Sequence record: PQ327946.1
Length of the DNA: 64,000 nucleotides
Strand: one strand, 5' to 3'
Source of the DNA: a phage
Of this stretch, positions 34,834-53,372 are shown in pieces. Under the pieces are notes generated by a model. It did not search any database. It saw only the letters and a program-made list of their open reading frames with translations, and had not been told where the DNA came from. The number at the start of each line of letters is the position of its first letter. Position 1 is the first letter of the stretch. The position numbers were made by a program, and so were the translations under genes.

Positions 34834-34861
34834 AAAAAAGCCCCAACCGTAAGGAAGGGGC
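34834..34861 (-). terminator. Rho-independent terminator (repeat family copy 1)
   Basis: Minus strand GCCCCUUCCUUACGGUUGGGGC followed by U-run. Confidence 0.6.
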
Positions 34862-34868
34862 TAGTAAA

Positions 34869-35171
34869 TTAGATAGATGTAGGCTCTAATTTTATTTTCA
34901 TGAACTCGGCAAATTGTCTGGCAGTTTTTATGCCTTGTTCATGACATTCAAATGCATCATCACAGGGGCTATTTTTGTAATGCTTTGCCATATACTTATA
35001 GAATTTTTCAGAATTCTCGACATTTTGAATTTCAAACAAAGTATATACGTTTTTAATCCCTGATTCCATAAAGTTATCAAAATATGGGTCGGTGTACGCA
35101 GTACCAACGTTAGGAGTTGTTGCTGCAAAAAACCCCAGCATCGCCATGACAGCTATCGCTCTTAAGGCCAT
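34869..35171 (-). CDS. Secreted small protein
   Basis: 100 aa; N-terminal signal-peptide-like hydrophobic segment. Confidence 0.5.
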   Translation of the reverse strand: MALRAIAVMAMLGFFAATTPNVGTAYTDPYFDNFMESGIKNVYTLFEIQNVENSEKFYKYMAKHYKNSPCDDAFECHEQGIKTARQFAEFMKIKLEPTSI

Positions 35172-40718: not shown

Positions 40719-41021
40719 TTATTTACCTTTAATTACTTTAGCTGCTTCGATAGCCGCTTGCTGAAGGTCATCCATAGACATACCGAATTTAGAAGCAAAG
40801 TTATCAATTTTCTTTTCAACAGCATTCAAAGGCTTGGCCTGTTTACCTTCATTAGCGCCAGGAAGAGCGAGAATACGCTCTTTGTCAATATAAAGGCTTA
40901 CAAGTTTCTTACGGTCTTTATCGGACAAATCGTGAAATGAATGGGCCTTTTTATTTATAGCGGCTTCTAATTTACCTGCACTCACTCGCGCTTCAGTAAT
41001 AAATTCTTGATATGTTTTCAT
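40719..41021 (-). CDS. Internal protein candidate with capsid targeting sequence (IPII/IPIII-like)
   Basis: 100 aa; N-terminus MKTYQEFITEA matches the T4 internal-protein targeting sequence. Confidence 0.55.
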   Translation of the reverse strand: MKTYQEFITEARVSAGKLEAAINKKAHSFHDLSDKDRKKLVSLYIDKERILALPGANEGKQAKPLNAVEKKIDNFASKFGMSMDDLQQAAIEAAKVIKGK

Positions 41022-41584: not shown

Positions 41585-41866
41585 CTATTTTTCTGAAGCG
41601 CCTGAAATGTATTTTTCAAGACGTTGTTTCATCAGCGAGCCGTTCTTAGCGATTTCTTCCGGTTTATCGCACATACGCAACAAGGCTTCAAGCTTAACGA
41701 TATCACTGGTGCGCTCAAATTTGCGAGTATCTATCTTACTAGCAAGTTCAGAAATACGTGCTAATAGACTTTCAGCTTCAACCAAAGCTGCACCTAGCTT
41801 AGTTGCAAATGTGTCAGTAGCTTCGTTAAGAATAGATTCTGATAAAAATTCACTATATGTTTTCAT
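41585..41866 (-). CDS. Internal protein candidate with capsid targeting sequence
   Basis: ATG at 41866 overlapping lysozyme stop; N-terminus [10 protein letters not shown]. Confidence 0.55.
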
Positions 41867-42352: not shown

Positions 42353-42378
42353 ATACCTCCCACGTTTATAGGAGGTAT
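42353..42378 (-). promoter_or_regulatory. SD-sequestering hairpin with late-promoter-like loop upstream of gene e
   Basis: ATACCTCC/GGAGGTAT arms; loop contains TATAAACG on minus strand; SD GGAGG in 3' arm. Confidence 0.5.
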
Positions 42379-42385
42379 TTATTAC

Positions 42386-49004: not shown

Positions 49005-49310
49005 TTAATTTTTCCAACTTAACAACTTGTAGTGTCCTTCATTCATACGTGGTTTATCCCAAGAAATACTAATATATGATTCGCTGTCAATAGAAGTCGC
49101 CGGGTTTTTCTCTACCGTAAGACCTTCACTTTCCAGCCATTCAATAGTATTTGCGCATAAATCGGAAGAACACCTCATCGGAAACCTGCAAGATTTTTCA
49201 CCTTTAGATGCAGCGTTATACATCTTTTCTAAAATACGCTTTTGCACGTTTTTAAAAATAGTTTCAGCAGATTCTTCAGATTTTTTATTCAGTTCAGTAT
49301 AAAGACTCAT
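49005..49310 (-). CDS. Hypothetical protein
   Basis: 101 aa ORF. Confidence 0.45.
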   Translation of the reverse strand: MSLYTELNKKSEESAETIFKNVQKRILEKMYNAASKGEKSCRFPMRCSSDLCANTIEWLESEGLTVEKNPATSIDSESYISISWDKPRMNEGHYKLLSWKN

Positions 49311-49338: not shown

Positions 49339-49367
49339 ATAGTATCATGTCCTTAGAAGAAGTAAAC
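49339..49367 (-). promoter_or_regulatory. Early promoter GTTTAC-N17-TACTAT
   Basis: Consensus-like -35 and -10 with 17-nt spacer. Confidence 0.5.
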
Positions 49368-49400: not shown

Positions 49401-49427
49401 AAAAAGCCCCAACCGTAAGGAAGGGGC
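49401..49427 (-). terminator. Rho-independent terminator (repeat family copy 2)
   Basis: Same GCCCC...GGGGC hairpin plus U-run as 34834..34861. Confidence 0.6.
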
Positions 49428-49433
49428 ATTCTA

Positions 49434-49898
49434 TTATTTAATTTGTTTAGCAGACCAGATACGGTCTTTAATAAGTTTTTGGATATCTTCAACATACTCG
49501 AGGCTATGAGCGTGAGGATTATCTTTGAAGCTATGTGCTCGTGCCAGTTTCCGGCCTTCTGTTTTGATTACTAAAAGCTCTTTAAGAATTGCTTCATACT
49601 TAGAAATAATTCCTTTGGCGATATTTTTTTCTTGAGCGGCTTTAGGGTCCGCTTTTGGCGTAGGTGCTTTACCTGTAGCTTTTTGGAACAATTCACCTGA
49701 TGCAGCTAGGCTTTTAAAAACTCGGCTAACAGTATTAGCATTAGTAAAACCTTCGGCTTTAAAATCTCTAATAAAACGGAAACGTTCTTCATCAGAGGCG
49801 TCTTTGTAAGAATATTTACCTGCTTGAATTGCTGCAATCGCAGCGGCTTTTACATCTGAACTAGATTGTTCAGTCAAAAATTCAGCGTATGATTTCAT
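49434..49898 (-). CDS. Internal-protein-like protein with capsid targeting sequence
   Basis: 154 aa; N-terminus MKSYAEFLTEQ; flanked by terminators. Confidence 0.5.
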   Translation of the reverse strand: MKSYAEFLTEQSSSDVKAAAIAAIQAGKYSYKDASDEERFRFIRDFKAEGFTNANTVSRVFKSLAASGELFQKATGKAPTPKADPKAAQEKNIAKGIISKYEAILKELLVIKTEGRKLARAHSFKDNPHAHSLEYVEDIQKLIKDRIWSAKQIK

Positions 49899-49942
49899 GT
49901 TGCTTTTCCTAAGTTAATTAACTTATCTATTTATTATTATAC

Positions 49943-49971
49943 AAAAAAAGCCCCAACCTTTCGGAAGGGGC
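49943..49971 (-). terminator. Rho-independent terminator (repeat family copy 3)
   Basis: Minus strand GCCCCUUCCGAAAGGUUGGGGC plus U7. Confidence 0.6.
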
Positions 49972-50024
49972 TATGCCTTGCGGCAACCTTGTCGGGGTTC
50001 CACCTGCTAAGGCAAGTGTTTGTA

Positions 50025-50048
50025 CGAAACGCCGGGATTCGAACCCGG
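50025..50048 (-). other. tRNA-like T-arm/acceptor remnant
   Basis: Minus strand CCGGG-TTCGAAT-CCCGG; no convincing D or anticodon arm found by hand. Confidence 0.3.
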
Positions 50049-50283
50049 TTATTAAGCAGTTGACACTACTCAATATTTTTAAAAGGCCATATCTCGACCA
50101 TATCCGAACGTTCCGTCAAAAACGCTACTCGGCTTACGGCAAAGATATTTCCTCGAATCGATAATTCTGTGCGCCGTTTCTGCTGTGATGTAAGGGGATA
50201 TTAACGAATCATAAAGATTTATTAAGACCAGTCCTTACACAGGGAACATCAGTCCGACGACTTGCCGGTAGCGACCCGGCTTC

Positions 50284-50646: not shown

Positions 50647-50723
<77 letters not shown>

Positions 50724-50729
50724 AATATA

Positions 50730-50803
50730 TGACCCAGACCAGATTCGAACTGGTAACCTTTCCCTTATGAGGGGACTGCTGCTAACCATTGAGCTACAGG
50801 GCC
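50730..50803 (-). tRNA. tRNA with anticodon CAU (Met or lysidine-Ile), non-canonical D arm
   Basis: Acceptor GGCCCTG/CTGGGTC, T arm ACCAG-TTCGAAT-CTGGT, loop CTCATAA; 6 nt downstream of tRNA-Arg. Confidence 0.6.
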
Positions 50804-51695: not shown

Positions 51696-52079
51696 TTAAC
51701 CTTTATCAACAATAGTATGTGTATGGGCATTTACGATTTGCCACCAGTCAAAACTATCGCCAAATCGTTTTGATTTATTGTCTTCAATAATTTGGCGTAA
51801 TTCATCTTCAGTAGCGGCTTTCGCGATTAAATCAGCATATCCACCACGAGGATAATAATTATCACCTGCAAAAAGTAAAAAGTTTGGTTTAATATTATTA
51901 AACTCTTCAAGAGTAATAACTGTTCCACCAGGTTGAACAATATCTACATAACTATATCCTAATTTTTGAGCAGCATCTACTGCTTCAAGCAGGGTATCAT
52001 GAGCCCATCCAATTTGGCAATCTGGCTTTTCAGATGGATTAGCCTGATAATCCGCGTACACTTTATACATTCTATTCAC
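51696..52079 (-). CDS. Hypothetical protein
   Basis: 127 aa ORF. Confidence 0.45.
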   Translation of the reverse strand: MNRMYKVYADYQANPSEKPDCQIGWAHDTLLEAVDAAQKLGYSYVDIVQPGGTVITLEEFNNIKPNFLLFAGDNYYPRGGYADLIAKAATEDELRQIIEDNKSKRFGDSFDWWQIVNAHTHTIVDKG

Positions 52080-52321: not shown

Positions 52322-52609
52322 TTACAGAAGAGTTTTTGCAATAATTTTAAGCTGAGCTACAGAAATATGCTTAGCTTTAAACAGTGTAGTCTCTTCAGCC
52401 GGAGAGATAACAATAGTAGCGCCGTCTTTCTTAGCAGACCATCCATCACCTAAGTAAACAGTACCTTTTACTTCTTCGCCGTCAACCAGACTAATCATCG
52501 GTTTACCCTCACGTCCTTTATTTGCTTTAATAACTTCGGAAGTAAGAGTTGCTTCAGTCAGAGTAGAAACGTTAGCAACAGGTGATATAAATTCTTTATA
52601 GGTTTTCAT
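52322..52609 (-). CDS. ipI: Internal protein I-like (capsid targeting sequence)
   Basis: 95 aa, same precursor length as T4 IPI as I recall it; N-terminus MKTYKEFI; directly upstream of 57B. Confidence 0.6.
   Translation of the reverse strand: MKTYKEFISPVANVSTLTEATLTSEVIKANKGREGKPMISLVDGEEVKGTVYLGDGWSAKKDGATIVISPAEETTLFKAKHISVAQLKIIAKTLL

Positions 52610-52686: not shown

Positions 52687-53372
<686 letters not shown>

Follow-up and report, generated by a model that had tools for sequence, protein, structure and literature searches.

We identified ORF154, a 154-amino-acid open reading frame on the minus strand of a T4-type phage (positions 49434 to 49898; N-terminus MKSYAEFLTEQ), as a good candidate for an unannotated member of the phrog_2280 family of T4-type internal proteins. 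It is probably a new member of the known T4 internal-protein (IP) class, encoded at a third polymorphic locus. The window, i.e., the whole 64,000-nt stretch of DNA analyzed here (sequence record PQ327946.1), was found by sequence comparison to be 95 to 98% identical in this region to RB69-like Mosigvirus phages. Since only 5 codons lie between the upstream in-frame stop and the ATG of ORF154, there is no alternative upstream start.

The leader resembles the capsid targeting sequence (CTS) of T4, MKTYQEFIAE (PMC8442874). The two are identical at M1, K2, Y4, E6, F7, and E10, with conservative replacements at S3 and L8. A suppressor mutagenesis of the T4 CTS assigned targeting to residues 4 and 7 and processing to residues 8 and 10 (PMC9026906), and all four critical positions are kept in ORF154 (Y4 and F7 for targeting, L8 and E10 for gp21 cleavage). 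The putative CTS, MKSYAEFLTE (codons 1 to 10; 49869 to 49898, minus strand; motif match), ends in an (L/I)-x-E site at residues 8 to 10 (L8-T9-E10, followed by Q11). This is a putative cleavage site for the prohead protease gp21, which cleaves after Glu at ITE and LTE, the latter being a proven site in Alt (PMC5694885). A strict CTS pattern, M[KR][ST][YF]x[EQD]F[ILVM]x[ED], had three matches in the six-frame translation of the window, each at the start of an ORF, against an analytic expectation of 0.0004; none of 300 Markov-1 simulations gave a match.

A looser CTS pattern brought in the IPI homolog as well, resulting in four CTS-type ORFs in the window (52322 to 52609, 49434 to 49898, 41585 to 41866, and 40719 to 41021). 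ORF154 is therefore one among four and not the third targeting-sequence protein, as which the original prediction had counted it. The other three, unlike ORF154, match families labeled as internal virion or head proteins. The ipI homolog (52322 to 52609, minus strand) matches Pfam IPI_T4. Its leader, MKTYKEFISPVANVSTLTE before an A, deviates at residues 9 and 10 and has lost the first LxE site; residue 19 holds the sole candidate for gp21 cleavage, in agreement with a propeptide of 19 residues. The ipII homolog (40719 to 41021, minus strand) matches a labeled internal-protein family, and the remaining gene (41585 to 41866, minus strand; 93 amino acids) matches phrog_3499, internal head protein. 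The latter has an acidic to neutral pI, stands in place of the T4 ipIII, and shares an ATGA overlap with the stop codon of the lysozyme gene e. The order of this second IP locus is e-ip-denV-ipII in the window versus e-ipIII-ipII-denV in T4.

The leader is also retained among the homologs of ORF154. Tequatrovirus alleles with 77 to 79% identity begin with MKSYTQFLNEAVLNEA or MKSYAQFLNEA, a Jiaodavirus homolog in KP1 (40% identity) begins with MKFKEFLAEA, and more distant homologs, down to about 30% identity, begin with MLKFNEFLAEG, MLEYSEFLKELFCEA, or MISFNEFVDGNLITES. Other homolog leaders recorded were MLEYSEFLKE and MISFNEFV...ITES. An LxE site is present in every homolog leader, and several alleles have two in tandem. 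The leader codons vary at synonymous positions among genes and phages, indicating that the conservation is selected at the protein level and does not reflect recent DNA exchange. Cleavage would produce the candidate N-terminus QSSSDVK, from Gln11, in the window protein and SSTEIQAVAK or VLNEASSTEIQAVAK in the Tequatrovirus alleles. The original prediction had proposed a targeting-sequence N-terminus and had named coincidental similarity as what might undo it. The number of strict matches is far beyond chance and the leader persists down to about 30% identity, which upholds a true match to the T4 CTS.

Virion proteomics data were available for one homolog. In the LC-MS/MS data set of the Yersinia phage fD1 (PMC8309999, Table S3; deposited as PXD026812), g140, a homolog of ORF154 (type A, hereafter), was particle-associated at the strict threshold, as were the fD1 CTS proteins g129 and g146; the g140 neighbors g138 and g139 were not. 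The particle-associated list contains 113 of the 277 gene products, with denV, lysozyme e, and NudE among them; the data set thus discriminates poorly, with low specificity, and the detection of g140 is weakly consistent with packaging of the A family. The Jiaodavirus phage VMC03, for which virion proteomics exists, was absent from the tblastn matches of ORF154, and the fPS-phage paper had no proteomics in it.

These data bear on the idea that the product is not virion-associated but acts in the cytoplasm, the leader being a relic or a translation-initiation feature of recombining T-even genes. It would agree with the label "hypothetical" in all annotations examined, with an fD1 list (113/277) that gives no specific proteomic proof, and with a locus outside the classical IP loci (PMC2839356). 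However, a relic would hardly be kept at the protein level despite differing synonymous sites, be retained where the mature parts are only 30 to 40% identical, and always include the LxE site, sometimes doubled. The late-promoter box of the relatives (see below) and the particle-associated match of the fD1 homolog also argue against a cytoplasmic product, and we consider this explanation improbable. We thus prefer the reading of ORF154 as a packaged internal protein.

The gene order on the minus strand of the window is as in T4, with 57B (Acb1), ipI, trna.4-.2, tRNA-Met, tRNA-Arg, a small ORF, rnaD/rnaC, and ORF154, after which the T4-like order goes on with the e.8-e.2 block, nudE, e, and the second IP locus. 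The rnaC homolog (species 1 RNA; about 50023 to 50161, minus strand) was located by alignment to the T4 annotation (NC_000866), is nearly identical to the T4 rnaC therein, and closes the tRNA/stable-RNA cluster as its final gene. ORF154 lies directly behind this cluster, as expected from its predicted site next to the tRNA region. It does not belong to either of the classical IP loci (57B/ipI and e/denV), being situated after rnaC and before the e.8/e.6 block; ipI is approximately 2.4 kb away and the e/denV locus approximately 7.6 kb. ARAGORN detected tRNA-Arg and tRNA-Met at 50647 to 50803, along with an odd tRNA with a 4-base anticodon at 50022 to 50116 (minus strand), inside the tRNA-like rnaC homolog. 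The 57B homolog (52687 to 53142, minus strand) matches Pfam Acb1, an anti-CBASS phosphodiesterase, which places a known anti-defense gene directly upstream of ipI in the window.

ORF154 was predicted to sit between two near-identical terminators, and folding and pattern search confirmed both of them. The upstream one is GCCCCTTCC-GAAA-GGTTGGGGC followed by T7 (hairpin 49950 to 49971, element 49943 to 49971, minus strand), and the downstream one is GCCCCTTCC-TTAC-GGTTGGGGC followed by T5 (hairpin 49406 to 49427, element 49401 to 49427, minus strand). They have identical 9+9-nt stems and a T-run after each, and differ in their loops. Owing to an AA/TT internal mismatch, neither hairpin was picked up by a generic terminator scanner. 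The upstream terminator folds at -21.6 kcal/mol (z = -3.7), and the terminator pattern appeared 0.00 times by chance in 100 shuffles. The tRNA/rnaC transcription unit ends at this upstream copy, which serves as the left direct repeat and left border of a cassette containing ORF154, with the downstream terminator as the right direct repeat; the single T4 terminator after rnaC has the same position and the same GAAA loop as the upstream copy. A third copy of the hairpin, the TTAC version and fully identical to the downstream one, is located at 34840 to 34861 (minus strand) after the rI antiholin gene, indicating that the hairpin is a reused terminator in the window genome. The rI gene itself (34869 to 35171, minus strand; Pfam PF24205) has AATAAATA before it and an early promoter, GTTTAC-N17-TATAGT, after it.

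A late-promoter-like box, AATAAATA (49928 to 49935, minus strand), is present 29 nt upstream of the ORF154 ATG, matching the T4 late promoter TATAAATA at 7 of 8 positions and departing from the consensus at the first base. AATAAATA occurs three times on the minus strand of the window, each time a short distance before a gene start (that of ORF154, lysozyme e, or rI), and SA79RD has the same box as the window. Relatives in Tequatrovirus and Jiaodavirus have a perfect copy of the late promoter, TATAAATA, at the same place, directly behind the terminator. The relatives' TATAAATA and the occurrence of AATAAATA before gene starts in the window make late expression of ORF154 plausible. No early promoter was found in the 44-nt spacer from the upstream T-run to the ATG, and a ribosome-binding site, AGGAAA, was read from the sequence 6 nt before the ATG (49905 to 49910, minus strand). 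The two TATAAATA boxes before the T4 lysozyme gene e read AATAAATA and TATAAACG in the window (42376 to 42383, minus strand), and the late-promoter boxes of the window phage may tolerate an A at the first position. On the other side of ORF154, a T4-type early promoter, GTTTAC-N17-TACTAT (49339 to 49367, minus strand), serves the next gene (101 amino acids, 49005 to 49310). It is conserved in the Mosigvirus G2285 and forms, together with the downstream terminator, an element of the PeSL (promoter-early stem-loop) type.

Alignments with relatives revealed exact filled and empty sites. G2285 is without exactly 544 bp (window 49428 to 49971, minus strand), a unit composed of the upstream terminator copy, the late-promoter-like box, the ribosome-binding site, and ORF154, and it keeps the downstream terminator copy with a TTAT/TTAC loop. 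T4 has one terminator after rnaC, whose left flank is that of the upstream copy in the window and whose right flank (TTTTTGGTATCTAAG...) is that of the downstream copy; in alignments to SYGD1 and fD1, the gap in T4 covers precisely the late-promoter box together with the ORF and the second copy of the terminator. The cassette bracketed by terminators that had been predicted is thus borne out, as relatives gain or lose the unit exactly at the repeated hairpin. We infer that loss of the unit, or its swap for a paralog, proceeds through recombination within the terminator repeat; the indel pattern itself was observed directly.

We typed the state of the locus downstream of rnaC in 18 loci. The site is empty in T4 and G2285 and contains only A in the window, SA79RD, SYGD1, fD1, IME341, and one more. 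HP3, MLP2, OES_C-3, and two IMG/VR contigs have A, a second terminator copy, and then another gene, B, which is present by itself in CT01 and in RB69, where a frameshift splits it into ORF149c and ORF148c. Two contigs have unrelated genes at the site. RB32/RB51 and PP01 are also among the phages bearing A. Scanning IMG/VR with the exact pattern of the rnaC trailer yielded 6 loci only, too few to serve as a population survey. ORF154 is thus variable among relatives, with absence (T4 and G2285), truncated alleles, and alternative occupants of the site.

Gene B encodes 187 amino acids starting with MKTYAEFLTEA, a leader sharing 9 of 10 residues with that of A. Both match phrog_2280, and their BLASTP similarity is limited to the leader. 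A kinship through the leader alone was nevertheless rejected, because the C-terminal domains aligned after removal of the leaders (hhalign, 93.7%, E 2e-7); as judged from this alignment, B is a distant paralog of A in the C-terminal domain. Tegunavirus fHe-Yen9-01 also has a tandem gene pair with CTS-like leaders. The homologs in KP1 (L004, 2995 to 3528) and fHe-Yen9-01 (gp153; L019, 1480 to 2016) resemble A in the N-terminal domain but differ from it in the C-terminal part. A TPDLY motif in that part recurs in fHe-Yen9-01 gp154, the neighbor that aligned with type B, and domain shuffling is likely to have occurred within the ORF154 family.

Truncated or split alleles of A and B also occur in sequenced phages (P0007 to P0009, SfPhi01, and RB69 ORF149c/148c at L007, 7429 to 7991), which could represent decay or sequencing error. 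In a metagenomic protein of 94 amino acids (P0010), the start of the trna.3-like protein (window 51696 to 52079) is joined to the C-terminal 31 residues of the ORF154 family, suggesting a natural deletion of approximately 2.2 kb that removed the whole tRNA/rnaC cluster.

The original prediction took the cassette to be independently acquired, and the comparison across relatives, which delivered the exact cassette sites, speaks against this part. A recent, independent acquisition by the window phage via horizontal transfer would be in keeping with the direct terminator repeats flanking the unit, with the exact empty sites in relatives, and with the apparently recent exchange of another internal-protein gene of the window, ipII. 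The latter (40719 to 41021, minus strand) is 95.3% identical to the T4 ipII at the nucleotide level with a dS of 0.12, compared with 1.1 to 2.1 for its neighbors versus T4, suggesting a recent exchange between Mosigvirus and Tequatrovirus. In contrast, ORF154 has dS values of 1.0 to 2.1 versus the Tequatrovirus alleles, the same as those of the flanking genes (1.1 to 1.2 for e.6, 2.1 for 57B, and 1.2 for e), indicating that it diverged along with its surroundings. In each of the genera Mosigvirus, Tequatrovirus, and Jiaodavirus, its homologs are found at the same site, following the tRNA/rnaC cluster, and other Mosigvirus records have copies with 95 to 99% identity in the same context. We therefore regard a recent acquisition as very improbable. 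The dS match to the flanks and the shared site in three genera point to an old resident with sporadic loss, and the empty sites are most simply explained as losses. By tblastn, the ORF154 gene was found in 512 phage records, and the rnaC region was matched by about 700; of the sequenced T4-like coliphage records, roughly two-thirds contain the family.

The predicted mature protein (49434 to 49868 including the stop codon, minus strand) consists of 144 amino acids with a mass of 16.0 kDa and is basic, with a pI of 9.7 and 21 Lys residues; the T4 IPs have been described as highly basic (PMC8442874). ORF154 had a dN/dS of 0.07 to 0.16 versus its Tequatrovirus homologs, indicating a real gene under purifying selection. 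An AlphaFold2 model from a six-sequence alignment predicted an N-terminal three-helix domain, a disordered Pro/Lys/Ala-rich linker, and a long C-terminal helical hairpin; as the model is of moderate quality (mean pLDDT 75.7, pTM 0.45), no function can be read from the fold. Foldseek gave generic helical (ferritin-like) matches only against the PDB (E > 0.3, TM < 0.31) and matches to the protein's own family only against BFVD.

ORF154 matched phrog_2280, annotated with "unknown function", and nothing in Pfam or PADLOC. Homologs are labeled hypothetical in all of the 40+ named database entries examined, including RB27_136, RB32ORF132c, and e112_137. For the family, a profile searched against 1.84 billion representatives matched 10 clusters only, one of which (P0058) looks like an assembly chimera. 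The idea of a diverged IPIII was rejected, with an hhalign probability of 1.5% for ORF154 versus the T4 IPIII. In searches with Pfam (including IPI, PF11634), PHROGs, and hhalign, the mature part was unrelated to IPI, IPII, and IPIII. With PADLOC and Foldseek added, it had no similarity to any characterized Ip or anti-defense protein.

This composition raises the alternative that the protein is packaged by its CTS but has no specific target, being a generic Lys-rich, DNA-associated head protein for charge neutralization or DNA condensation and ejection. Such a role would suit the pI of 9.7, the 21 Lys residues, and the Pro/Lys/Ala-rich linker, as well as the DNA phosphate contacts made by internal-protein lysines in T4 heads (PMC3012670), and no fold or family suggests an enzymatic or inhibitor function. 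However, specific GmrSD targets exist for all three T4 Ips (PMC12373910), and the presence/absence polymorphism and paralog swapping are more in line with a gene in an arms race than with a housekeeping gene. Tight conservation of the N-terminal domain among homologs (AGKYSYKD.SDESRFQF) suggests a specific interaction. A purely generic head protein thus appears unlikely, although less so than a cytoplasmic product.

We propose that ORF154, as an internal protein, would be expressed late, from the late-promoter box that immediately follows the rnaC terminator, from transcripts reading through this terminator, or from both. The decapeptide MKSYAEFLTE would then dock the protein on the prohead scaffolding core like the T4 CTS does, and gp21 would cleave after Glu10, between LTE and Q. 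The 144-amino-acid basic helical product would remain in the head with the DNA and be injected along with it. By analogy with Ip1, Ip2, and Ip3, the injected product might disarm a host defense acting on the incoming modified DNA, and the A protein would most likely be an injected anti-defense factor. Ip1, Ip2, and Ip3 are injected inhibitors, each of a different GmrSD type IV restriction enzyme (PMC12373910), and IPIII has also been reported as an inhibitor of GmrSD elsewhere (10.1101/2022.04.14.488369). For some GmrSD/type IV variants that act on T-even phages, no inhibitor turned up among ten ip genes tested (PMC12373910). More tentatively, the A and B genes of phrog_2280 may form a third internal-protein locus behind the rnaC terminator and encode injected, subtype-specific inhibitors of defenses unmatched to any Ip. 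A GmrSD/type IV variant lacking an inhibitor among the ten ip genes would be one example of a possible target. It has been stated that T-even genomes have no IP genes other than those at their two classical loci (PMC2839356).

Host immunity encounters injected internal proteins before any other phage molecules. The ORF154 family, common in T4-like coliphages of the therapeutic type, is a candidate new anti-defense effector and may help account for differences in host range. Its exact filled and empty sites offer a clean natural case of gene gain or loss by recombination between repeated terminators. As the CTS, the polymorphism of IPs, and terminator/promoter cassettes are already established, ORF154 extends a known picture and adds no new principle.

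The closest known counterparts are the IP loci of T-even phages, which were reportedly found to be variable by Repoila et al. in 1994, the same pattern as that seen at the ORF154 site. Likeness to these loci includes an N-terminal CTS of approximately 10 residues ending in a gp21 site, a small, basic, and nonessential product, and variability between T-even phages with conserved regulatory sequences at the flanks. The differences are that the mature ORF154 sequence is unrelated to the IPs and its PHROG has no function label, and that the gene is directly after rnaC rather than next to 57B or e/denV. ORF154 is set apart from the unnamed variants of the 1994 study only via the annotations of RB14, RB32/RB51, and RB69.

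The PeSL cassettes of T4-type phages (Arbiol et al. 2010, Comeau et al. 2014; PMC2839356, PMC4122927) generalize the IP-locus pattern, and the ORF154 site was not counted therein as an IP locus (PMC2839356). They resemble the ORF154 cassette in that repeated GC-stem terminators by promoters flank a small accessory ORF, with indel junctions within the repeat. However, the upstream stem-loop of ORF154 is paired with a late-promoter-like box and no early promoter, whereas the downstream element fits the PeSL type. The T4 ADP-ribosyltransferase Alt is head-packaged, injected, and processed by gp21 at ITE and LTE (PMC5694885), and thus resembles the path proposed for ORF154 in head packaging, injection, and the gp21 site LTE, which is putative in ORF154. 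Alt differs in being large and enzymatic and in having another leader, and it has no sequence relation to ORF154.
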